From positions 96,001-160,000 of the IMG/VR virus record IMGVR_UViG_3300034358_000044: a stretch of 64,000 nt of DNA, one strand, 5' to 3'. This DNA comes from a virus. Below the pieces are notes generated by a model. The model saw only the letters and a program-made list of their open reading frames with translations. It was not told the origin of the DNA and made no database searches. This document shows, in pieces, positions 154 to 61,950 of this stretch (positions are counted from its first letter, which is position 1; the number at the start of each line of letters is the position of its first letter). A program made the position numbers and the translations under genes.

Positions 154-639
154 TCAGAAGCCGAGTTCGCAGAGCTCGCTGTAGTCGAGCTCGAAGGTCT
201 TCGTCCGGCTGATGTTCTTCATGACCCTCTCGTCAGCGACGATGTTGTCCGCCAGGTAGCTGACCGTGGTACCGAGTCGGCGGAGCTCGTGCAGGTCCTT
301 CTCCAGCGACTCGACGATGTCCTGGGGAATCCCCGAGTAGCCACCAGGACGTACCTCACGGTTGCCCACGGTGTTGACGGAGGCCTTGGTGAGGTAGGCG
401 TTCACCTTGTCGGAGTCGTTCCCGGCCTCGATGACCTCCTTGGGGTCCACGCCCCGGCTCTTGGCGAGCTCCGCGATGCGCGCCTTGCTCTTTTCGATCT
501 TGGTGTGGGTCTCCTTGACGCGCGTCTTGAGGGAGTCAGCGATCTCCTCCCCCGTCTTGTTGAACTTCAGGTTCTCGATTCGAAGGTGGCCGCCAGTTCC
601 GTCGAACATTGCTTCCATCTTGTCGTAGCTCTTGCGCAT
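154..639 (-). CDS. hypothetical protein
   Basis: 161-aa ORF tightly packed in the leftward operon, GC3-rich codons. Confidence 0.7.
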   Translation of the reverse strand: MRKSYDKMEAMFDGTGGHLRIENLKFNKTGEEIADSLKTRVKETHTKIEKSKARIAELAKSRGVDPKEVIEAGNDSDKVNAYLTKASVNTVGNREVRPGGYSGIPQDIVESLEKDLHELRRLGTTVSYLADNIVADERVMKNISRTKTFELDYSELCELGF

Positions 640-640
640 G

Positions 641-826
641 TCAGATGTCCTCGCCCTTCAGTGTGGACCTGCCAGATGCCCTGGCGCGGTTGATGGCCGC
701 CTGGATGATCATGTGAACCTGCTGGTTGACTGCATCGATGAAGTCGTCTCCAGAACGCATCTCTGCGTCCTTCACTGCCTGCTTCACCTTCGAGACCACT
801 ACGAGAACATCCACTTCTTTCGCCAT
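641..826 (-). CDS. histone-fold protein, bacterial Bd0055-like singlet
   Basis: 61 aa, AGGAG RBS; VLVVVSKVKQAVK...AINRARASGRSTLKGEDI has the R-x-T-x-x-x-x-D histone-fold signature and the VLVVxSKVK start recalled for Bdellovibrio Bd0055. Confidence 0.85.
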   Translation of the reverse strand: MAKEVDVLVVVSKVKQAVKDAEMRSGDDFIDAVNQQVHMIIQAAINRARASGRSTLKGEDI

Positions 827-835
827 TGCGTGCTC

Positions 836-1642
836 CTACAAGTCCTTCGAGTCGATGAACCAAGACACCAGGAAGCTGATGCCCTTGATGGTGTGGCCGT
901 TCTTGGTGAAGATGCGGCCGATGACCATCGGGTCGCCCTTCGTGGCAGAACGCTGTGAGGGAGCAGCTCCCAGTACGTCGAAGAACTTCTCCGAGAGTGC
1001 CTTGGCCGTAGCGTTGAGGACTTCCGGCTTGGCCAGCTTGAAGGGGAAGTCGATGTTCTCCTTGAACTCGGAGGCCCAGGCTTCCGTCACGTAGACGGGC
1101 TTCCCCTCCTTGTCCTTGTCCATGTGAACGTCGCTCTCGATGAGAGCCTTCGGGCTGACGAATCGACCCTCACTCAGGGCCGGGTTGTTGCTCTCCTGGT
1201 CGGGGATGAACGGCATGTCCGACCTGTAGGAGTTCTTCCGATCCGCCCACAGCTTCTTGGGGTTCTTCGCCGTGGTGCGAATGGCGAAGATGTCCATGTC
1301 CATGTCGGGGATGATGGTGTAGCCGGCCTTCAGCGCCGCATGGACCTTCTCGTAGAACTGCTTCTGCTTCTTGGCCTTGGTGACGATGGCCTCGAACGGC
1401 TTGCTCGCCCACTTCCTCTTCTTGGCGATGTCGAGGTTGTCCTCTGCGGCCTTGATGTCCACGTCGATCCTCTGGATCTTCGCAGTGGCCCAGTTCTGGA
1501 GCTTCTTCTGCGCCAGGTTCATTTGCTCCAGGGTGCTGGCGGCGACGAAGACGTCATCACCTTCAGAGTCCTCTGTGAGCTTTGCCGTCACGTCCATAGG
1601 AGCTGGAAGCGCCTTCTGGACGACTTCCTTCTCTTCGTTCAT
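836..1642 (-). CDS. hypothetical protein with coiled-coil N-terminal half
   Basis: 268-aa ORF, heptad-like K/E/Q-rich segment. Confidence 0.7.
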   Translation of the reverse strand: MNEEKEVVQKALPAPMDVTAKLTEDSEGDDVFVAASTLEQMNLAQKKLQNWATAKIQRIDVDIKAAEDNLDIAKKRKWASKPFEAIVTKAKKQKQFYEKVHAALKAGYTIIPDMDMDIFAIRTTAKNPKKLWADRKNSYRSDMPFIPDQESNNPALSEGRFVSPKALIESDVHMDKDKEGKPVYVTEAWASEFKENIDFPFKLAKPEVLNATAKALSEKFFDVLGAAPSQRSATKGDPMVIGRIFTKNGHTIKGISFLVSWFIDSKDL

Positions 1643-1877: not shown

Positions 1878-2969
1878 CTACTTGGGGGACACAGGGCCGA
1901 TGAAGCCCTGGAGGAACGTCTGGAAGCTGGCCAGGGTCCCGGCGTTGCCCTTGGTGGCGGGCTGGAGCTGGGGGTTGGTGAGGTACATGTGGTGCAGGCT
2001 GGCCAGAATCTGGTAGCCGAGCACCCGCAGCTCATCGACATCACCCTGCAGCTTGGCGACCGCCTTGAGGGCAGCGTCGCTGTTGTGGGCGGAGATCTCC
2101 AGGCCCTTGCCCAGGGAGTCCAGCTTGGACGCCAGTCCGCCGTCCTGGGCGTGAGGCTGTGCCACCTGCTGGGGAACGAACGGAGCCATCTGGGCGACCG
2201 GAGGGACGAACTGCTGCTGGGGTGCCGGAGGCGGCCCGTTGAACTGCATCACCGGGGTAGCCGCCTGCTGAGCAGGAACCGGCTGGGGCTGGAAGCCGGG
2301 AGGGGCCATCGCAGCGGGAGGTGGAGGAGCCACGGCGTTGCCAGCAGCCGTCTTGCGCTTCCTGCCGGACACCTGCACAGCGCCGTCTGCCGGAGGTGCC
2401 TGAGGGGCGGGCTGCATCATCTGCTGCGGCGGCATCTGCATGGGCATCTGCACCTGCTGCGGAGGGATCCACTGGGCAGGAGCCTGGGGAGCCATCGGAG
2501 GAACCCCGACCGGTGCTTGGGTGAACTGCTGCAGCGGCTGCTGCTGGTAGCCGGCAGGAACCGGCATCATCTGCTGAGGCGCAGCCGGGACCTGGGCGAA
2601 CTGCTGCGGGGACATGGGCGCAGGAGCCTGGGGGACGGGTTGGAAGGACATCTGCGGACCCGCTGGGGGCTGAGCCATCTGGGGAACTCCATTCGTTGAG
2701 GGTGGGAGCTGCGGTACACCTGACGCGCCGAGATCGTTCTGGAGGTAGCCAGCAGAGATCTCGTGGTTGATGATGGCCGTCTTCACGAGCTCCCGGTTGT
2801 CGAGAGTCTCCTGGTAGGTCATCAGCGGATTGCCATCCGGCTTCTTGTAGATCATGTACGCCAGGTTTCGAACGGCTACGAACCTTGCTGCGTCCAGCTC
2901 CGTCTTCCTCTGGCTTGCAGTGGTGCCCGGTCGAGGGGCGAGTTCGTAGGTAGTGCCAGTATCAGTCAT
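1878..2969 (-). CDS. Pro/Gln-rich low-complexity protein with C-terminal coiled coil
   Basis: 363 aa, long P/Q/A/M-rich central region. Confidence 0.75.
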   Translation of the reverse strand: MTDTGTTYELAPRPGTTASQRKTELDAARFVAVRNLAYMIYKKPDGNPLMTYQETLDNRELVKTAIINHEISAGYLQNDLGASGVPQLPPSTNGVPQMAQPPAGPQMSFQPVPQAPAPMSPQQFAQVPAAPQQMMPVPAGYQQQPLQQFTQAPVGVPPMAPQAPAQWIPPQQVQMPMQMPPQQMMQPAPQAPPADGAVQVSGRKRKTAAGNAVAPPPPAAMAPPGFQPQPVPAQQAATPVMQFNGPPPAPQQQFVPPVAQMAPFVPQQVAQPHAQDGGLASKLDSLGKGLEISAHNSDAALKAVAKLQGDVDELRVLGYQILASLHHMYLTNPQLQPATKGNAGTLASFQTFLQGFIGPVSPK

Positions 2970-10319: not shown

Positions 10320-10763
10320 TCACTTCTGAAGCGGATCCTTGACGCGCTTCTCCCACGGCTCGACGCCGCAGAACTTGCACTTCTTCGGCTCCTCCAACTT
10401 CGATCCGCACTGAGGGCAGAGCGATCCGACAGCACCTGTCTTGTTCATTCCATCGTCTTCGAGAACAACTCCGAGCTTTTCGATCATGTGCTCCTCCGGT
10501 GCTTCAGACAGCTTCGACCCAGGCACGAACGAGTAGTGCTGGAACCTGAGCGTCGTCCTGGGGGTCAGCTCTTTTCCAAAGGCGACTCCCCCGCGAGTCT
10601 TCCTCTGCGTGAAGCGGCCGAAGCTGGGAATCTTCACCTCGCCGCCACTGACGATGATGTGCGTCTCGATGCGATTGAAGGTGGCGTAGAGAATCTCCTT
10701 CACCACCTTCTTCGGCTGACCGGTCTTCTTTGCGACTGACTCCACCAATTCGATAAACGTCAT
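10320..10763 (-). CDS. HU/IHF-like DNA-binding protein with C-terminal Zn ribbon
   Basis: ATG 10763 with AGGAG RBS; MTFIELVESVAKKTG...VKIPSFGRF; tail CPQCG...CKFCG. Confidence 0.85.
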   Translation of the reverse strand: MTFIELVESVAKKTGQPKKVVKEILYATFNRIETHIIVSGGEVKIPSFGRFTQRKTRGGVAFGKELTPRTTLRFQHYSFVPGSKLSEAPEEHMIEKLGVVLEDDGMNKTGAVGSLCPQCGSKLEEPKKCKFCGVEPWEKRVKDPLQK

Positions 10764-10789
10764 ACCACTCCTGTCAACGTGTGAGTGTA

Positions 10790-10822
10790 CTACTTCGCAG
10801 TGCCCCAAGTATGCCCCGAACC
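10790..10822 (-). repeat. copy 1 of the polA 3' end (GSGHTWGTAK-stop), read as the HNH C-terminus
   Basis: GGT TCG GGG CAT ACT TGG GGC ACT GCG AAG TAG; shares an exact 14 bp CCCCAAGTATGCCC (plus strand) with copy 2. Confidence 0.95.
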
Positions 10823-19990: not shown

Positions 19991-22507
19991 TCAGTCCTCG
20001 ACCACTTCTCCTCTCGCGGGGAGAGCAGCGAATGCGATGTTGTAGGCCTCCTCTACGGAGGGTGGAAGAGTGTCTGGTACCCTCATGGGCTTCACGATTT
20101 GGTAGGGGTAGTTCCACTCCTTCAGACTTCTCTTGAGCGAGCCCAGCATCCTCTTGAAGGAGGGGACCATCCAATCGTCGAAGACGATCATGATGGGATC
20201 CTTCTTGCCCGGTCTCTCGCGCTGGATGCGCCCCATCGACTGCTGGAGAGCAATCTTCGAGCGGAAGGGGGTCAGCCAGAAGAGGGTGTCGAGCCGGTCA
20301 TCGTCCACTCCAGTGGACCCGAGCTTGGCGATGGCGAAGCAGATGTTGCTGTCCCGAAGGACGTCCATGCGCGTCGTCCTGTCCGTCTCCCCCACGATGA
20401 GGGCAGACCCAGGGAACATTGCGTGGAAGAGCTTGAGCTGGTCCTTGGAGTGAGAGAGGCACAGGACCTTTCTGCCAGCCTCTACAGCCGCCTTGATGCT
20501 GTGGTAGCGGTAGATGTTGCCCGCCTTGTTCCTACCCAGAGCGGTTCGTAGGAGGGAGATGTTGGTGGTCCCGTTGAGCTCGCTCTCCGCAGAGTTCATC
20601 ACCGTAGGTGTCTGCTGGATGAAGATCTTCGGAATCAAGTCCTGTTGAAGGTCCGTGTAGAACGGCTCCCCCAAGTGGTACCGGTAGATGGGGTCCAGCC
20701 CGTCCTCTCTCCGCACGGTGGCGGTGAGGCCGATGCGGTCTCCGTAGAAGGGGGAGGCGGTGAGGCTAAACTTCGGAGCCCCAATCTGGTGGACCTCGTC
20801 GTAGATGACGAGTCCGAAGTACCTGAACACTTCCTCAGGTACGGAGCCGCTGTCGATCCGCATCCAGAGAGTGGTGACGAGAGCTAAGGTGATGGGCTTG
20901 GCCCAGTTGAAAACTGGTCCCTGAATCAGCCCCATCTCCCCCTCAAAGCTCAGCCCCTTCACGATGCCCTTGTCGGGGTTGCCGTAAATCGACTCCTTCC
21001 ACTGCTCAAGAATGCCACCATCTGGTACAATGACGAGAGTAGGCACTCCCTTCTGGGCAACCTTCTTGAGGGCGAGGCGGGTGTTGTGGGTGGGGATGTA
21101 GTCCTTTGCGAGAAAGAGATGGTCTGGACTATCTACTGAGATGCAGGTGGCAAGGCCTTTTCCTTGGAAGATAACGGACTCTACAGCACGGTACGGTTCT
21201 CTCTGCCTTGAGGGTGGCAGCTTCTCCAGTTTTCGAGAGAGCCTGAAAAGGGGCATCCCCTTCGGCAGCTTTATGAGGAGTCTGAAACTGGGGAACTCTT
21301 TCCCGTTGCAGGTCGTGATTCGGTGCTGCCTAGTGCAGGTACCCCCTAGAGACAAAACCATGTCGGTCATGTCGTCTGCGAGTTGAGTTGACACAGTGGC
21401 ATACTCTGCTGCTCCTGCAGCAGTCGGACTGCCGTCAGTGTCGAGTAACCCTTGAATGACTGCAAGTCTGTCCCAACTACTGGAGTACTTGTACAACGGA
21501 GGAACGAACTTATAGTGTGCCGTGTGCCCCATGAGGCCAAGCTTCTGAAGAAGAACTGGAAGCCTGGACTCTTTCTGCGTCTGAGCATCACTATATGACA
21601 TCGAGATTCGATACGTCGTCGCCCTTCCAGAGTGCCTACCCGTAACCACCATGAAACGGTGAAGTGGTGGTAGTTTCATGAAGGACAACATCTCGCCGTC
21701 CATTGTAGTGAACTCAACGATGTTCGGTCTGGAGAGATGCCCATCTCCCAGAAGTGCTCCCAACGTATATGGGTCTACTTCAAGGTCCCCAGGCTGCCAC
21801 TCTACTGGAGCTATGGTTGGGAGATAGAAGAGGCGTCCTGCTGCTCCTTGGAGCGGCTTCTGAAGAAGGTCCTTCGTAGTGAGTGTTACAGTTGGCTTGC
21901 CACGGGTCCTCCTCAGAACGAAATTCCACTGATGGTCTGCATCGCAATCTAGATGTGTACCATCAGTGAAGGACACTCTGTAGATGTCCCTCTCGCCTTG
22001 AGGAAAGACTCCGACGACCTTGTAGGACCTACCATTGGTCCCTACTACTTGGTCCTCCATCGTCACCTGTTCGATGGGTATGAACCCTCTGGCTGTAAGG
22101 ACGTTCTGTCCGTGAGCCAGTGCTTTGCCTTTCCCGCAGCCCAGGTTGAGGATGCCATTGTCGTTGAGGGCTAAAGCATGCCACGCCTTCTCCTGCTCCT
22201 CATCACGAGGAACGACGTGATCCTCGAAGACGACCTTCTGGAACTCCGGGCGCAAGTCGATGAAGGGGAACTTGTACCTGGGGTAGTGTGAGGCGGGGAT
22301 GAACTCTCGTGGGCATACGAGATGGTGTTGCGTCTCGTGCCACATGCTCATCTTCACCTGTGCGACTTCACCCTGTTGATCTTTGCCATTCACAAGGAAC
22401 TCAAGGGCCCGCTTGACCGGCTCCGTCCGAATCTGTGACTTCGGAAGCCAGAGCCGATCAGCGAGGTACGCCTTTGAGGGATCCTTGGGGACGTAGAGCA
22501 AGTTCAT
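19991..22507 (-). CDS. SF2 helicase (XPB/UvsW-like) interrupted by an intein
   Basis: GCGKGK|intein|T, YDEVHQ, IGLTATVRRED, LGSTGVD, QQSMGRIQR. Confidence 0.9.
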   Translation of the reverse strand: MNLLYVPKDPSKAYLADRLWLPKSQIRTEPVKRALEFLVNGKDQQGEVAQVKMSMWHETQHHLVCPREFIPASHYPRYKFPFIDLRPEFQKVVFEDHVVPRDEEQEKAWHALALNDNGILNLGCGKGKALAHGQNVLTARGFIPIEQVTMEDQVVGTNGRSYKVVGVFPQGERDIYRVSFTDGTHLDCDADHQWNFVLRRTRGKPTVTLTTKDLLQKPLQGAAGRLFYLPTIAPVEWQPGDLEVDPYTLGALLGDGHLSRPNIVEFTTMDGEMLSFMKLPPLHRFMVVTGRHSGRATTYRISMSYSDAQTQKESRLPVLLQKLGLMGHTAHYKFVPPLYKYSSSWDRLAVIQGLLDTDGSPTAAGAAEYATVSTQLADDMTDMVLSLGGTCTRQHRITTCNGKEFPSFRLLIKLPKGMPLFRLSRKLEKLPPSRQREPYRAVESVIFQGKGLATCISVDSPDHLFLAKDYIPTHNTRLALKKVAQKGVPTLVIVPDGGILEQWKESIYGNPDKGIVKGLSFEGEMGLIQGPVFNWAKPITLALVTTLWMRIDSGSVPEEVFRYFGLVIYDEVHQIGAPKFSLTASPFYGDRIGLTATVRREDGLDPIYRYHLGEPFYTDLQQDLIPKIFIQQTPTVMNSAESELNGTTNISLLRTALGRNKAGNIYRYHSIKAAVEAGRKVLCLSHSKDQLKLFHAMFPGSALIVGETDRTTRMDVLRDSNICFAIAKLGSTGVDDDRLDTLFWLTPFRSKIALQQSMGRIQRERPGKKDPIMIVFDDWMVPSFKRMLGSLKRSLKEWNYPYQIVKPMRVPDTLPPSVEEAYNIAFAALPARGEVVED
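21083..22123 (-). mobile_element. class 3 intein with LAGLIDADG endonuclease, 347 aa, in helicase Walker A
   Basis: starts with Ala (ALAHG); block B DADHQW, block F ATCISV, block G IPTHN/T (W-C-T triplet); GALLGDG and QGLLDTDG motifs. Confidence 0.9.
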
Positions 22508-35200: not shown

Positions 35201-38200
35201 AGCCACCACCCCCAGTGCCGTCGTTCGCCTACAACAAGTTCGTGGCCATGCTGCGTGGAGCTGGACTCAACGTCACCAAGGAAGGCACTGGAGTCCGCCT
35301 TGTTCCGATGACGAACAAGGAGATTCTCCACCAGGCAGGGAATGGTCACAACCAGATCAGCGATGCCTCCAAGACGCTGCTCTCGAAGAACTTGAAGCCT
35401 GTGCCAGGGGGGCTCTTCGACCCCTACCTCACTGGTGGTATCGGTGGTGACAAGTGGTCCTACATGAAGCTGTCGGAGCCAGTTCCAAATCCGATGTTCT
35501 GTGGGGAGAATGTGAAGCCGGGTCCAGTGCCTGTGCTTCTCGGACTGAAGATTCAAGAGCTCGATGAGGTGATGCACGGCAAGCGCACCATCGACGGGAA
35601 GACTGGTGGGCATGCTGTCGAGGCCGCCCTCAAGAAGGTGGACGTCGATAAGGAGATCACGAAGCTTCGGACGGACCTTCCTTCCCTCAAGGGTTCGACC
35701 CTGGATCGGAGCAACAAGAAGTTGAAGTACCTCCTTGCCCTCAAGGACCAAGGCCTCAAGCCGCACGAGGCCTACATGATGCACAACATCCCCATCCTCC
35801 CGCCGAAGTTCCGCCCTGCAACGGCGACCCCTTCTGGTGATGTTAGCTACGCCCCCATCAACGGTCTCTACAAGAACATCTCCCTCATCAACGATGAGCT
35901 GAAGAACTTCGACAGCAAGACGTATTCGGAGGAGCACAAGGAGCCGTTGCGGTTGCAGCTCTGGGACTCCGTGAAGGCTCTTCAAGCGGTGGGCAATTAC
36001 AAGCCGGTCTATGACATGGACCAGAAGGGAGCTCGTGCGCTCCCAGGTATTCTCGACATCATCGGCCATGGAGGCATTGAGGGGCAGCCAAAGGAGGGCT
36101 ACTTCCAGAGCAAGCTGGTGAAGCGCAAGCTCGATCTCTCCATGCGCTCGACCATCGTGCCCGAGCCCAACCTCCACATCGACGAGATGGGGGTTCCCAA
36201 GGGAGCGGCGATGGAGTCCTACAAGCCGTTCGTTGTGGCGCAGCTCCATCGATGGGGGCAGACCGCCTTGGCTGCTCAGGACGAAATCAAGAGGGACACT
36301 CCGCTGGCCACCAAGGCACTGGAGAAGGTCTTCGAGGACCGCCCCATCCTCATCAAGAGAGATCCGGCTCTCCACAAGTTCTCGGTCATGGGGTTCAGGC
36401 CTAAGCTGGTAAGTGGCAAGGCCATTCAGATCCACCCTTTGGTGTGCGGTGGGTTCAACGCCGACTTCGATGGTGACACCATGGCCGCTACCATTCCCCT
36501 CTCCAAGGCGGCCGTGGAGGAGGCCAAGAAGATGTTCCCGTCCAAGAACCTCTTCAACCCAGGAAGTGGAAGGGTGATGTACGTCCTGGACCAGGAACAA
36601 ATTCTTGGTCTCCACTATATGACTCAATGGGGGAAGCAGACCGACAAGAAGTTTGGAACGATCGATGAGGTGAAGAAGGCACTCTCGAAGCACGAGATCG
36701 AGCCCACCGACATCATCTCCCTCAAGGATGCCCAGAAGCCGACCACTGCCGGTCGCTTGATGTTCGCAGCGACTCTTCCTTCCGGCTTCTCGGAGAACAA
36801 GGACATCCTGCACAACCCCAAGCTGGACATCACCAAGAAGTTCCTGGCTGACAACATCGCCACCAATCTGGCGAAGAACCACGTCAACCACTACGCCACT
36901 GCCATCGATGGGTTGAAGGATCTGGGTAACGAGTGGTCCTACAAGCTTGGAGTCTCTTTCGGCTTGAAGGACTTCGCCGTTCTTCCTGAGCGGGATGCCA
37001 TCCTCAAGGACGCTACCAAGGATGCGGCACACGCGACCAAGACGTTGAAACCGGGGACGGAGCTCGACAAGAGGCTCATCGAAATCTACTCCAAGGCAAC
37101 GGACAAGATTGACGCTGCAGCCAAGTCCAGCCTTGGTCGAAGTGACAACCGACTTGGACGGATGGTCTTCACCGGAGCTCGTGGAAAGTCGGAACAGCTC
37201 CGCCAGATGATTGCTGCACCGATGTTGGTGCAGGATGGTCTCAATAGGACTCTCACGACTCCAGTGATGAGGTCCTTCTCGGAGGGACTGGACCTGGGTG
37301 AGTACTGGTTGACGCAGAGCGGGGCTCGTAAGGGCACTCTTCAGCGTTCATCGGGTACTAGAGATCCGGGTGCGGCCTCCAAGGAGATTCTCAACTCGAC
37401 GATGTCCACCCTCATCACTTCCAATGACTGCAAGACGACGCAGGGCATCTTGCTGGACGTGAGTCACCCCGACATCCATGACAGGTTCCTAGCAGCCCCC
37501 TACAAGCTGAAGGACGGGGTGACCGTGAGAGAGGGGACACTCCTCACTCCTGAAATCACCGGCAAGCTGCGTGATCAGAAAGTCCTGGTGCGTTCCCCGC
37601 TCAAGTGTCAACACGGAGACGGCATCTGTGCCAAGTGTTTCGGCCTGAACGAGCGTGGGGTTCCACACGATGTTGGAACCAGTATCGGTGTTCTCGCTGG
37701 TCAGTCATTGGGAGAACGTGCGACCCAGCTTTCCATGAACGCCTTCCACACAGGAGGAGTCGCTTCTGGTGCCGGTTCTGAATCAGTGGACATGTTCACA
37801 CGACTCAAGCAAATCCTGGGCATGCCGAAGAAGCTGAAGAACCAAGCTACCATCTCTCAATCCTCTGGGAAAATTACCCAAGTCTCCAAGGATGCCGCAG
37901 GCGGAGTGAACATCACCATCAATGGAATTGGCCACAAGGTAGATACTGCCCTTGTGAACCCGAAGATGGTAGTAGGTACTGAGGTGAGGAAGGGGGAGGC
38001 TCTCTCTGGAGGACACATCAACCCTCTCCATCTTCTCAGCGTCACCAAGGATATTCATGCGGTCCAGAACTACATGACCAACGAACTTGATACCCTCTAC
38101 AACAAGGAAGGTGTCCGCCGACGCAACGTGGAAGTCGTCGTCCGTGCGCTCACCAACCTCACCAAGGTGAAGGACCCAGGCCACAGCGACTTCATTCATG

Positions 38201-38493
38201 GAGATGTTGCTCCCCGCTCGGTGGTTGAAGAGTACAACCGGACGCTCTCCAAGGGGCACAGGCCCATCGAGCACGAGCCCATTCTGAAGGGCATCACGGA
38301 GATACCGTCTCAGTCTTCCAACTGGCTGGGCCGGCTCAACTTCCAGGAGCTCCATTCCACGGTGCAGCAGGCGGCGGCCATGGGATTGAAGTCGGACCTT
38401 CACGGGAGCCACCCCATCCCCGGTATGGCCAGAGGGAGTGAGTTCGGTCTTCCACCTCCTGAGTTGAAGGCCAAGAAGCCCTACGTCTACTAG
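32221..38493 (+). CDS. rpoBC: single-chain fused beta-beta' multisubunit-type RNA polymerase, 2090 aa
   Basis: beta: GYNFEDG, GDKMSGRHGNKG, LNPSGVPTRMNVGQ, GGQGFG; beta': PILPPKFRP, KRDPALH, NADFDGD, RSPLKC...ICAKC, TQLSMNAFHTGG; no stop between the halves. Confidence 0.97.
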   Translation: MADTQTPEHSFEVLKTNTLKAIQSYFPYEGRKQRLVVENLRVDDHLSSDDIGSQSDAKDKEGTWGCPIKADVKLIDVATGKVIDTKKGTTLARLPKLTNRYGYIVGGNEYQVDHLFRLKSGAYTRVQDNGDLETEYNMKKGINGRGFSVKLDRLKKTFDLKLENTHVPLYPVLKSMGVSDDQLQEQWGKEIFEANKPKNDARFHSALKKFWDKTSEEGAAAPTDSAALAQHVINIFDQTAIHPDSTKITLGQSFHKVDGQALALGAMKVLGVSRGTLKPDDRDSLAFKEVASIEDFIPEKIERNAKSIKGRLRSMVENKKTISEILSPDLFNKPIREFFSKGGGVCERSDQTNPLQMLSANRKTTLMAKDFGGIKSDQTLTPEMKVVNASHFGFLDPMHTPESEKTGITLHLAANVRKVGKDLEAPVFNTHTGKEEYLKVADFHSAMAVLPDQVKWVGGKPVPISHDVKVKLPNGEIAVRPYKDAQYVMPSSKGLFNYASNMVPFLPCNNGNRVSMADKQMEQAIGLKHREEPLVQTKTDSLDPEHTFEKLVGHFTTARSPVEGKVISIKDGMIHVQGKDGKTEVHLYNHFPTNDPKGMLHSTPLVQVGDAVKKGQVLADSNYTKNGTLATGTNLRVGYVPYKGYNFEDGIVISESAAKKLTSEHLYKKNVEIDPDSDHISKDKFRAYSPVKASAMTKEQWDSIDDDGVIKPGTRVLPGQIMVAAIGKNVATKLTHSWGALGKRAIKPYKDKSLVWDEDHVGVVTKVVKESGGRGVKVYVKTEESALIGDKMSGRHGNKGIITQILPDHEMPFTTDEKGERQPLQVLLNPSGVPTRMNVGQLLETAAAKIAEKTGKPYIVNNFAGPGHDYRQQVLDDLKKHGLKDEEHVFDPNDPKRSIGSVLVGHQYMLKMVQQVEKKLTARGGGTDVQGKALAYDSDMQPTKGGERGGQGFGQLEMYSLLGHDARHNIREMATYKSDMQDANFWSMVQNGKEPPPPVPSFAYNKFVAMLRGAGLNVTKEGTGVRLVPMTNKEILHQAGNGHNQISDASKTLLSKNLKPVPGGLFDPYLTGGIGGDKWSYMKLSEPVPNPMFCGENVKPGPVPVLLGLKIQELDEVMHGKRTIDGKTGGHAVEAALKKVDVDKEITKLRTDLPSLKGSTLDRSNKKLKYLLALKDQGLKPHEAYMMHNIPILPPKFRPATATPSGDVSYAPINGLYKNISLINDELKNFDSKTYSEEHKEPLRLQLWDSVKALQAVGNYKPVYDMDQKGARALPGILDIIGHGGIEGQPKEGYFQSKLVKRKLDLSMRSTIVPEPNLHIDEMGVPKGAAMESYKPFVVAQLHRWGQTALAAQDEIKRDTPLATKALEKVFEDRPILIKRDPALHKFSVMGFRPKLVSGKAIQIHPLVCGGFNADFDGDTMAATIPLSKAAVEEAKKMFPSKNLFNPGSGRVMYVLDQEQILGLHYMTQWGKQTDKKFGTIDEVKKALSKHEIEPTDIISLKDAQKPTTAGRLMFAATLPSGFSENKDILHNPKLDITKKFLADNIATNLAKNHVNHYATAIDGLKDLGNEWSYKLGVSFGLKDFAVLPERDAILKDATKDAAHATKTLKPGTELDKRLIEIYSKATDKIDAAAKSSLGRSDNRLGRMVFTGARGKSEQLRQMIAAPMLVQDGLNRTLTTPVMRSFSEGLDLGEYWLTQSGARKGTLQRSSGTRDPGAASKEILNSTMSTLITSNDCKTTQGILLDVSHPDIHDRFLAAPYKLKDGVTVREGTLLTPEITGKLRDQKVLVRSPLKCQHGDGICAKCFGLNERGVPHDVGTSIGVLAGQSLGERATQLSMNAFHTGGVASGAGSESVDMFTRLKQILGMPKKLKNQATISQSSGKITQVSKDAAGGVNITINGIGHKVDTALVNPKMVVGTEVRKGEALSGGHINPLHLLSVTKDIHAVQNYMTNELDTLYNKEGVRRRNVEVVVRALTNLTKVKDPGHSDFIHGDVAPRSVVEEYNRTLSKGHRPIEHEPILKGITEIPSQSSNWLGRLNFQELHSTVQQAAAMGLKSDLHGSHPIPGMARGSEFGLPPPELKAKKPYVY

Positions 38494-59208: not shown

Positions 59209-59699
59209 TGCATCCCTACATGTTCAAGGGTTTCGAAGATGAGCTTCAGAAGATCGCCATCTCAGAAGAGTGGGCGAGAGAGCACTCTCGAAGAGGGATG
59301 GCAAACCGCTTGAGGCTGGAGGAAGCGACTCTCACTGGAACTGGGGCTCGTAGAAGTCGTGCTGTAAAGGGAGGCCATGAACTGACGAGTAAGGGAAACG
59401 ACAGGGCCCTCGATCTCCAAGGACGGCTCGCGAGCCGAAAAGATTCCATTTCCTCCAGAACCCAGAAGAACCTGGATGCTTCGTGGGCAGGAGTGACGGA
59501 TGCTTTCAAGGACACGAAAGACTTGAAGAAGTCTATTTCAAAGTCTCGCGCCGAGAAGGTCAAGAGCATTCGAAACCTCAACACCGTCAAGAAGGTGGGC
59601 AAGGGTGTTGCCGGTGTCGGAGTTCTTGCTGCTGGTGCCTACGGAGCCAAGAAGATGTACGACCGGCAGAGGACCAAGATCCCTGCTAAAAGCGAGTGA
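59208..59699 (+). CDS. leader-bearing basic protein with a C-terminal hydrophobic segment
   Basis: MHPYMFKGFEDELQKIA; GVAGVGVLAAGAYGAKKMYD. Confidence 0.7.
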   Translation: MHPYMFKGFEDELQKIAISEEWAREHSRRGMANRLRLEEATLTGTGARRSRAVKGGHELTSKGNDRALDLQGRLASRKDSISSRTQKNLDASWAGVTDAFKDTKDLKKSISKSRAEKVKSIRNLNTVKKVGKGVAGVGVLAAGAYGAKKMYDRQRTKIPAKSE

Positions 59700-59703
59700 G
59701 CCA

Positions 59704-61950
59704 ATGCACGTCGCCACGCTCACTGCCTTCGAGGACGAGCTTGAGAAAGAGGCAGATGTCATCACGCCCCTCAAGGCGCATCAGCAGAGGGTCGTCGATC
59801 GCATTCAGCAGGAGGACCAGCCCGGTCTTGTGGTGGCCCACGGACTGGGTTCTGGCAAGACGCTGACGTCCATTGCCGCCCAAGACGCATTGGGGATGCA
59901 TGCGGACGTCGTTGTTCCTGCCGCCCTACAGGCGAACTACAAGAAGGAAATCAAGCAGCACACCAAGGGCAAGGTTCCCAAGGCGGCCATTCAGTCGATG
60001 CAGAACGTGGCCACCAAGAAGACGCAGTTGAAGCGCCCGATGATGGTAGTGGACGAGGCCCACCGCATGAGGGATCCGTCCTCCAACACCTTCCAGACGC
60101 TGAAGGGGACGGAAGCCAAGAAGCGACTACTCCTCACTGGGAGCCCATTCTACAATCACCCTTCGGACATCGCCCCACTCATCGACCTGGCCGCCAATGC
60201 CAAGGTGCTACCATTCGACAAGGATGAGTTCACTCGGGCCTATATTGCCGAGAAGACCATCAACCCCAGTTTCGGGCAGAGTCTGGCCAACATCTTTCGT
60301 TCTGATGAGAATAAGGTGAGGCCCGGTTTCGTGCCCATTCTCTACGAGAAGAAGGCTCCTGAACTACGAGCCGCCTTCAAGAAGTGGGTCGACTACCATC
60401 CAGGCAGCAAGGATGCAGAGGGCTTCCCGGATGTCGAGAAGAGGGACGTCCCCATCGAGATGACGAAGGAACAGCTTCGCGTCTACGATACCCTCATGGA
60501 CAGGGCGCCCGCTTGGGTCGCCGCCAAGGTGAAGCGCGGATTGCCTCCCAGCAAGCAAGAGGCCTCGCAGCTCAACGCCTTCCTCACGGCTTCTCGGCAG
60601 GCCACCAACACCACCGCCCCCTTCCAGCAGGACCAGAAGAACATCCAGGACCCGAAGATTCAAGCCGCCTTCTCCAGCCTCAAGAAGACCCTGGAGGGCA
60701 ACCCGCGAGCTCGGGCAGTGGTGTATTCCAACTTCCTGGATGCAGGCATCAATCCCTACAAAGCCAAGCTGGACGAAGCCAAGATTCCCTACGGGGAGTT
60801 CACTGGGGCCATGTCCAAGAAGAAGAGGGAGGAGATAGTCCAGCAGTACAACGCAGGTAAGCTGCGAACGCTTCTCCTCTCCAGTGCAGGTGGGGAAGGT
60901 TTGGACTTGAAGGGCACCAGACTGATGCAGATTCTGGAACCTCACTGGAACGAAGAGAAGCTGAAGCAGGTCCATGGGCGTGGGGCTCGCTACATGAGCC
61001 ACTCCGATCTACCTCCTGAAGAGCGAAAGCTCCTCATCGAGAACTACATCGCCAAGCGCCCCCAGGGACTGCCGACGTCGGTCTACAACAAGATCACGGG
61101 TCGAGCCCCGGACAAGTCAGTGGATGAGTACTTGACCCAGATGTCCGGCGACAAGGAGAAGCTCATCGAACAGTTCCGTGCGCTCCTCCCGAATGGGAAA
61201 GAGAAGAAGTCTGCTGCCGAGAAGAAGAAGGAACTCTTCGTCACCGACGAGAACACTCAGCGAGGCAAGACCACTGAGGTATCCAGAGAGCTTGCCAAGT
61301 CCCTGAAGCCGAGGGCGGCAGCCTTTGCTACCTTCACTGCCCCATTGGCTCTCACCGGGTTTCGTCTCGCTCGGGGGCTAGGGCCGAACATGAGTACGAA
61401 GTCACAGGCCCTTGCTGGAGGTGTTGGGGCGGCTCTCGGTGGTGCTCTGGGACACTTCATTGCCCATAATCAGACCGCCAACATCATCAACGACAGCAAG
61501 GCCATTGCCCGTCAAGCTCTTCGAACCGCCTCCAAAGAGAACAGCCTTCGAGAGGAAGCTGGGAAGATGAACTGGGGTGATGTTGCGCGTTCCTCCAGGA
61601 ATCGCGTCATCAGTGATGTGGCCACCTCCGCTCCAGTACTCACTCGACTAGCGACCCAGCACATCCAGGGAAAGGGGCTTAAATTCCCCACGACGGACCT
61701 GGGGCTCATGGCGGCTGGAAACATCCTAGGCTCCATCGGATCCGGCTACCTAGAGAAGTACAAGAAGATGATTGCCGTGAATGAGCTCGACAACGTCAAA
61801 GCTCGTATGGCGGAGCAGGACGCTACGCGCCTCAAGAGACTTCGTAACCAGGTAGCCCAGCTGGAGACTCGGGTCGAGGGGGACGGATGGAACGCCCCCA
61901 AGAAGGACGACGCTCCAGTTGAGAAGAAGAAGGGCAAGCTGGACTGGTAG
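59704..61950 (+). CDS. leader-bearing SF2 (SNF2-like) helicase/translocase with a Gly/Ala-rich C-terminal domain
   Basis: MHVATLTAFEDELEKEA; HGLGSGKT, DEAH, LLTGSP, GGEGLDL, QVHGRGAR. Confidence 0.85.
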   Translation: MHVATLTAFEDELEKEADVITPLKAHQQRVVDRIQQEDQPGLVVAHGLGSGKTLTSIAAQDALGMHADVVVPAALQANYKKEIKQHTKGKVPKAAIQSMQNVATKKTQLKRPMMVVDEAHRMRDPSSNTFQTLKGTEAKKRLLLTGSPFYNHPSDIAPLIDLAANAKVLPFDKDEFTRAYIAEKTINPSFGQSLANIFRSDENKVRPGFVPILYEKKAPELRAAFKKWVDYHPGSKDAEGFPDVEKRDVPIEMTKEQLRVYDTLMDRAPAWVAAKVKRGLPPSKQEASQLNAFLTASRQATNTTAPFQQDQKNIQDPKIQAAFSSLKKTLEGNPRARAVVYSNFLDAGINPYKAKLDEAKIPYGEFTGAMSKKKREEIVQQYNAGKLRTLLLSSAGGEGLDLKGTRLMQILEPHWNEEKLKQVHGRGARYMSHSDLPPEERKLLIENYIAKRPQGLPTSVYNKITGRAPDKSVDEYLTQMSGDKEKLIEQFRALLPNGKEKKSAAEKKKELFVTDENTQRGKTTEVSRELAKSLKPRAAAFATFTAPLALTGFRLARGLGPNMSTKSQALAGGVGAALGGALGHFIAHNQTANIINDSKAIARQALRTASKENSLREEAGKMNWGDVARSSRNRVISDVATSAPVLTRLATQHIQGKGLKFPTTDLGLMAAGNILGSIGSGYLEKYKKMIAVNELDNVKARMAEQDATRLKRLRNQVAQLETRVEGDGWNAPKKDDAPVEKKKGKLDW

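Follow-up and report, generated by a model that had tools for sequence, protein, structure and literature searches.

The question raised by this locus is whether a short open reading frame (ORF) near the left end of the window encodes a histone and, if so, what kind of histone it would be and what use a phage might make of it. The window, i.e., the whole 64,000-nucleotide stretch of DNA analyzed here, corresponds to positions 96,001–160,000 of the source virus record (195,735 bp; complete per CheckV). The sequence-only reading had placed a 61-aa ORF with a good ribosome-binding site at 641–826, and it was present exactly there, on the minus strand, with an AGGAG. The gene and its neighbors are arranged as follows (window coordinates):

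154..639, minus strand: downstream gene of 161 aa, no assigned function, with its ATG one base past the histone TGA
641..826, minus strand: histone gene, a 61-aa ORF of the alpha3-truncated histone fold, stop codon included
833..837, minus strand: Shine-Dalgarno sequence AGGAG of the histone gene, six bases before the ATG (826–824), located by sequence inspection
836..1642, minus strand: upstream, co-oriented gene of 268 aa, no assigned function, with its TAG stop at 836–838

This AGGAG shares bases with the TAG stop of the 268-aa gene upstream. Given the one-base spacing between the histone TGA and the ATG of the 161-aa gene, these two genes are probably co-transcribed and translationally coupled, and, to judge from the layout, the 268-aa, histone and 161-aa genes very probably form one transcript. 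No sigma-70-like promoter and no convincing terminator were found near the histone gene, where the promoter/terminator scan gave nothing above shuffles. Across five histone orthologues that are 52–71% identical in protein [the query, P0002 (L002), P0003 (L004), P0011 (L006) and the G003 histone (L019)], dN/dS was 0.18–0.46, with dS near saturation, and judged by these ratios the gene is under purifying selection. The overlapping ORFs in other frames, at 632–958 (+) and 567–863 (−), were without comparable support. Upstream of the histone, at a distance of two genes, lies a gene for a 363-aa protein (window 1878–2969, −) whose core is a long low-complexity stretch rich in Gln and Pro; no family match was found for it.

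A phmmer search against PDB sequences returned four histone entries (E 1.5e-7 to 3.8e-5), histones being the only significant matches, and their alignments to the query ran nearly end to end. The matches were HTkC, the archaeal face-to-face (FtF) histone of Thermococcus kodakarensis (9F2C, E 1.5e-7; PMC11390915), HLp, the FtF alpha3 histone of Leptospira perolatii (9QT0/9QT1/9QT2, E 3.4e-6; PMC12701072), and Bd0055/HBb, the “bacterial dimer” alpha3 histone of Bdellovibrio bacteriovorus (8CMP/8FVX, E ∼3e-5; also solved as 9EZZ and 9F0E). When an exhaustive phmmer search was run over 1.84 billion representatives, 198 proteins matched the query at E ≤ 1e-3; a word-indexed homologue search returned only two close relatives.

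From an input alignment of 71 singlet relatives, AlphaFold2 gave a model with a mean pLDDT of 93.6, in which alpha1 spans residues 11–20, alpha2 residues 27–50 (24 residues) and alpha3 residues 58–60 (three residues), and the three-helix pattern claimed from the letters was thereby borne out. Two strings quoted in the same reading were also located, VLVVVSKVK at residues 7–15 and GRSTLKGED at residues 52–60. The latter contains the RxTxxxxD “RD clamp” (R53, T55 and D60), whose counterparts in the HLp alignment are R55, T57 and D62. A Foldseek comparison with Bd0055 and HMf, which had been proposed as a check, revealed a prokaryotic histone fold: the model matched 9qt0, 9f2c, 9f0e and 8fvx at TM 0.85–0.95 and rmsd 0.7–1.2 Å, the top nine matches were all alpha3 histones, and the nucleosomal archaeal histone HMfB, far behind them, reached only TM ∼0.6. 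The hallmarks of the alpha3 family are three helices, an alpha3 of 3–4 residues, a shorter alpha2 and the RxTxxxxD motif (PMC11390915). Three helices, a short alpha3 and the RD clamp, by which alpha3-truncated histones are recognized (Schwab et al. 2024), were all present in the query. By its sequence and its modeled structure, the protein is a member of the alpha3-truncated histone family, together with HTkC, HLp and Bd0055/HBb.

The query gave no Pfam match even at E ≤ 1 and no PHROG match, and neither DUF1931 (PF09123) nor CBFD_NFYB_HMF (PF00808) was reached; a FATC match at E 0.22 was dismissed as chance. Of its 71 relatives, 11 matched DUF1931 and 13 matched CBFD_NFYB_HMF at E ≤ 0.01. Pfam thus covers the alpha3 branch poorly, which explains why such genes stay unannotated.

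The assignment to a Bd0055-type histone held for the fold, which is the prokaryotic histone fold related to Bd0055, but not for the type, as Bd0055/HBb is not the closest solved relative. Single-sequence phmmer scores were 34.5 bits for HTkC and 30.3 for HLp versus 27.3 for HBb. When a profile of the clade around the query was used, the FtF proteins scored 53.8 and 50.3 bits and HBb 38.7 (E 1.4e-13 for HLp, 1.8e-12 for HTkC and 7.6e-9 for HBb). The FtF signature “R...N-G-R” was seen in the strongest database matches and, overall, in 131 of 187 domains.

The clade itself (P0001, P0002, P0003, the G003 histone, P0011 and P0146; SH-aLRT 99) was obtained with IQ-TREE on 115 singlet domains over ∼60 columns, the only run to give a supported clade, as the FastTree tree of the 187 domains was largely without resolution. 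Five of its six proteins lie on contigs related to this phage, and in the phylogeny that had been suggested as a check the query therefore stands apart, in a clade composed largely of phage proteins. In neither tree was the query grouped with REF_HBb, P0137, P0110 or the HBb/ZZ group, the HBb-type category itself being one defined by CLANS clustering. By hhalign, the clade scored 117 against a mixed set of non-R..N proteins, HBb's neighbors among them, and 108 against the HLp-like group, values that do not separate the two deep placements.

At the FtF interface positions 47/51, the residues are R..S in the query, Q..Q and E..Q in the two proteins nearest to it, and R..N, the retained motif, in the G003 histone and P0011, which are older members of the clade. 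Of the FtF residues R48 and N52 in the HMM logo (R49 and N53 of HLp), the Arg is thus present (R47) and the Asn absent (S51). Compared with the HBb type, for which R48 and N52 are both absent, the motif is RKTxxxD and alpha1 carries lysines, the query is without N52 but with R47, its motif is RSTLKGED, and the alpha1 lysines K13, K15 and K19 are present. Because HTkC carries a Glu at “N52” and is a tetramer regardless, the R..N motif is not decisive. The simplest reading of these sequences would be a phage lineage derived from FtF-type histones with a drifting tetramer interface. The safest label is an alpha3-truncated histone with no subfamily assigned, one that by sequence is nearer to HTkC and HLp, the solved FtF histones, than to HBb.

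Homologues of the 268-aa and 161-aa genes were found by tblastn beside the histone on the related contigs L002, L004 and L006 (35–62% identity); those of the 268-aa gene were 56–62% identical on all three contigs, and those of the 161-aa gene adjoin the histone on L004 and L006. A complete related phage, G003 (IMGVR_UViG_3300017774_005745; 196.8 kb with direct terminal repeats), has a terminase 70% identical and a histone 52% identical to those of the source phage. In G003 the histone has other neighbors, and no 268-aa homologue was found. As the histone is kept there without its 268-aa and 161-aa neighbors, it appears to be retained more widely than its operon partners, and a functional link between the histone and these two genes was rejected for the same reason. 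The 268-aa gene had no Pfam, PHROG or Protein Atlas match and no relatives in the viral-contig scan, and the 161-aa gene had no informative Pfam/PHROG family match and no usable Protein Atlas lead. A tblastn search with the histone against 50,697 GenBank phages gave no match. A pattern scan built on a four-sequence histone alignment found no relative in viral contigs; it missed even G003, which shows that such scans are insensitive for this histone. Judged by RNA polymerase and terminase, the closest cultured phages are Vibrio phage D69 and Salmonella phage Arash (∼29–33% identity), and a profile search found no histone in either.

Self-association was analyzed by modeling four copies. The model reached an ipSAE of 0.85, versus 0.01 for the best of three controls, and, since like complexes have already been solved, this score shows likeness to them, not binding. 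Between the three runs, at least 94% of contacts were shared, and the partner pLDDT was 87 or higher. When the modeling tool was calibrated, 20 of 30 solved homo-pairs and 1 of 23 single chains passed the mark, counts that are only a rough guide here because the query was modeled with its own 71-row alignment and in four copies. In the model, the scored copy touches its dimer mate along residues 6–61, as an antiparallel histone handshake, and a third copy at residues 43, 46–47, 50–51, 53, 57 and 59–60 (expected error <8 Å). The surface facing the third copy is that of the HLp tetramer, where R49/S52/N53/R55/T61/F63 correspond to R47/A50/S51/R53/E59/I61 of the query. The modeled tetramer may reflect memory of HLp (9QT0) and HTkC (9F2C) together with an alignment dominated by R..N rows. 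On sequence and model, the protein very probably pairs up and binds DNA; between a dimer and a tetramer, the modeling leaves the odds roughly even.

For the DNA contacts, the contact residues of HLp (PMC12701072) were mapped onto the query through the ungapped phmmer alignment. The five largest energetic contributors in HLp are R59, K21, K15, S14 and K17 (PMC12701072). S14, K15, K17 and K21 are identical in the query (S12, K13, K15 and K19), and R59 is conservatively replaced by K57; T56 and T57 correspond to S54 and T55. Two changes are unfavorable, G29 to D27 and K54 to G52. The whole clade has a net charge of 0 or −1 (pI 5.8–6.6), whereas HBb, HLp and HTkC have +2 to +3 (pI ∼9); among 110 singlet homologues, the median is +3 (pI 9.4), with ∼11% at or below 0. 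As the residues that face DNA have been retained and the additional acidic ones are placed away from them, DNA binding by the query is still likely, as judged from its residues, and bulk polycation coating of the phage DNA seems less likely, given the net-neutral charge.

Comparison with the solved proteins places these features in context. HLp is both the best structural match (TM 0.88/0.95, rmsd 0.7 Å) and the best match of the clade profile; its length, helix boundaries, truncated alpha3 and RD clamp are common to the query, and its R49 corresponds to R47. The two differ at N53 (S51 in the query, Q in the nearest relatives), S52 (A50), T61 (E59) and F63 (I61). HLp also has a net charge of +2 against 0, and the query is phage-encoded, with a tetramer that is modeled only. 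HTkC is the best single-sequence match, with 41–43% identity over the structural alignment and TM 0.86–0.90. Like the query, it has no Asn at “N52” (Glu in HTkC, Ser in the query), and it crystallizes as a tetramer regardless. Unlike the query, it is archaeal, thermophilic and basic (pI ∼9), and its L1 loop has a two-residue insertion relative to the query. HBb shares the fold (TM ∼0.85, rmsd 0.9–1.0 Å), the VLVV(T/V)SKVK start and the GR(K/S)T...D motif with the query, and both are without Asn at the FtF position; by analogy, an HBb-like dimer that bends DNA is plausible for the query too. HBb is, however, the weakest of the solved matches (E 3e-5), and it carries a Ser at the position of R47.

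Phage-borne proteins of this kind have been described before. In hLife 2025, IMG/VR was mined for histone-fold proteins, and face-to-face (VFFHFP) and Bd0055-like (BBVHFP) types were reported in Caudoviricetes, as predictions only (PMC13681535; preprint 10.1101/2024.12.06.627149). The query comes from the same database, virus class and protein family. The VFFHFPs differ from it by a lysine-rich N-terminal tail of 5–40 aa, whereas the ten N-terminal residues of the query hold one Lys, and the BBVHFPs by an extra C-terminal helix, whereas the query ends at alpha3. Schwab et al. (2024), who defined the alpha3 family, also set apart a “phage histone” type, e.g., A0A2E7QIQ9 (PMC11390915). These proteins are phage-borne and have an alpha3-type fold, as the query has, but they carry a C-terminal tetramerization helix and no RxTxxxD, while the query, at 61 aa, has no extra helix and keeps R53-T55-D60. 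Phage alpha3 histones as a category have thus already been published, and the query adds a good example, not a new category. What is new is modest: a phage clade that is both supported and charge-neutral, and in which the FtF interface motif is drifting.

The histone gene belongs to a leftward block in which genes are closely packed, ∼22 kb from where the block begins. ThyX, a RusA-like resolvase, a DnaB-like helicase, a family-A DNA polymerase (PolA) and an HU-like protein are encoded in this block as well; the opposite strand carries the terminase, the structural genes and the fused RNA polymerase. Two of these had been named from the letters alone, and both were recovered. The HU-like protein (window 10320–10808, −) matched PF00216 at E 7e-8. 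It is 162 aa long, and its residues 16–72 match the first 56 of 90 HU positions, with a further weak HU-HIG match; by these matches, it is HU-like with a divergent C-terminal part. The phage's own RNA polymerase is a fused beta-beta' ORF of the multisubunit type (2090 aa; window 32221–38493, +), in which Rpb2/beta domains 3 and 6 come ahead of Rpb1/beta' domains 2–5; among isolates, it comes closest to the polymerases of Vibrio phages D69, D181 and D148 and of Salmonella phage Arash (∼29–33% identity). Also on the plus strand is an SNF2-family helicase (window 59605–61950; SNF2-rel_dom and Helicase_C); in viral genomes that bear histones, no chromatin-related protein is more frequent than SNF2 proteins (PMC13681535). 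An 838-aa ORF (window 19991–22507, −) with weak Hint and LAGLIDADG matches suggests an intein inside a phage gene. As shown by aragorn, an array of 41 tRNA genes (G000:C1:86648–95307, minus strand) lies just before the start of the window, immediately downstream of the histone operon and on the same strand, and an extra tRNA-Tyr lies at 125373–125448.

We consider it probable that the protein is a DNA-binding histone dimer or tetramer that acts in the infected cell. Because the gene stands within the replication/recombination block, an intracellular role is the most likely one, and a role as a capsid packaging protein is less likely. In a histone-fold dimer, two chains would be locked together in antiparallel orientation by the long alpha2 and by an N-terminal strand (residues 6–10). 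This dimer would present the “paired ends of helices” (S12, K13, K15 and K19) to the DNA backbone, which would also be faced by the L1/L2 “beta-bridge” (S25, S54, T55 and K57, with R53 clamped by D60), and it would bind DNA without sequence specificity and bend it. If two dimers were to join face-to-face at the alpha2 C-terminus, L2 and alpha3 (R47, A50, S51, R53, E59 and D60), ∼60 bp would be wrapped, as in HLp. Made in the infected cell, the histone would act as a phage nucleoid-associated protein organizing replicating or transcribed phage DNA. The gene, its fold, its family and its conservation within a phage lineage are established here, and the dimer and tetramer contacts come from modeling; we infer its DNA binding, its timing and its target DNA, the timing from the gene neighbors only.

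It is unlikely that the protein is a host-directed or otherwise specialized factor rather than a general DNA organizer. Such a factor could shut down or remodel the host nucleoid, shield phage DNA from nucleases or silencers, or poison host chromatin through mixed dimers with an alpha3 histone of the host. The neutral to acidic charge of the clade is atypical for bulk DNA binders, the drift of the tetramer-interface residues, taken together with that charge, would fit a changed partnership, and phage proteins directed at host nucleoid proteins are known (e.g., PMC8501957 and PMC4635203). However, the main DNA-backbone contact residues are conserved, which would be unexpected for a pure protein-binding decoy, and no host histone can be named, as neither the cellular scan nor the ThyX relatives gave a host.

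A bolder variant, for which the chances appear slim, takes the clade as a charge-neutral offshoot of the FtF histones with a loosened tetramer interface, no longer a bulk compactor but a specialized partner of the phage machinery or a dominant-negative subunit. If this were true, the histone could partner the fused beta-beta' RNA polymerase, the SNF2 ATPase and the HU-like protein, and a minimal phage “chromatin” could mark phage DNA; alternatively, a dominant-negative subunit could mix with an alpha3 histone of the host.

It is very unlikely that the histone is a virion or packaging protein, one that enters the capsid together with the genome or condenses DNA for packaging, and is injected with the DNA. 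Some giant viruses use histones to package their DNA (PMC11390915), and Marseillevirus histones and adenovirus protein VII are analogues. Large phages do package internal proteins, and several proteins of this genome are reported to share a leader that is possibly capsid-targeting. The query histone is without this putative leader: its sequence has neither KIA nor the ...E-L-x-K-I-A leader of the putative capsid-targeted proteins. Moreover, its gene lies in the replication block on the strand opposite to the terminase and the structural block, and a net-neutral protein would be a poor charge neutralizer. The density of DNA in tailed-phage capsids leaves little room for a stoichiometric protein, which likewise counts against packaging. 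Finally, that the ORF is no functional gene at all, but a chance ORF or a decaying remnant, might be argued from its shortness and its lack of matches in Pfam, PHROG and the 50,697 GenBank phage records, but this is effectively refuted by the strong ribosome-binding site and the tight coupling to the flanking genes, the dN/dS of 0.18–0.46 over five orthologues, the confident fold (pLDDT 93.6), the Foldseek result and the significant matches to solved histones.

The histone had also been taken as a hint of a Bdellovibrionota/Myxococcota-like host, and this was not upheld. A pattern scan of GTDB species representatives, itself insensitive, gave no close homologue of cellular origin, and the query is not nested within Bdellovibrio-type sequences; alpha3 histones occur in many phyla (PMC11390915), which also counts against the hint. 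ThyX was tried as a host signal. Its relatives were scattered matches in MAGs at 32–47% identity (Parcubacteria, Altimarinota, Neisseria, Actinomycetes and Cellvibrionaceae), and it was rejected, as such matches point to no particular host.

The locus has some value as an experimental subject. Bacterial and archaeal alpha3 histones were structurally characterized only in 2023–2025, and two complete genomes, the 196-kb genome analyzed here and its 197-kb relative, both keep the histone, which makes it a clean candidate for study. Set beside HLp and HBb, a histone with a neutral charge and a drifting tetramer interface lends itself to asking what decides between the bending and the wrapping of DNA.

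Several observations concern the wider set of relatives. Many of the strongest matches to the histone are tandem-doublet alpha3 histones of 118–150 aa (P0004, P0012, P0016, P0036, P0047 and P0141). Some relatives start with a hydrophobic, signal-peptide-like segment (P0046, P0052, P0059, P0101 and P0115) or with an extra N-terminal domain (P0005–P0010), which would be odd for a DNA-binding histone. A further alpha3 histone, P0014 (59 aa; L011 9688–9867), is found on contigs of 10–29 kb that carry many family-less small ORFs. It adjoins a 1520-aa ORF, and these contigs probably represent a different phage or a mobile element.
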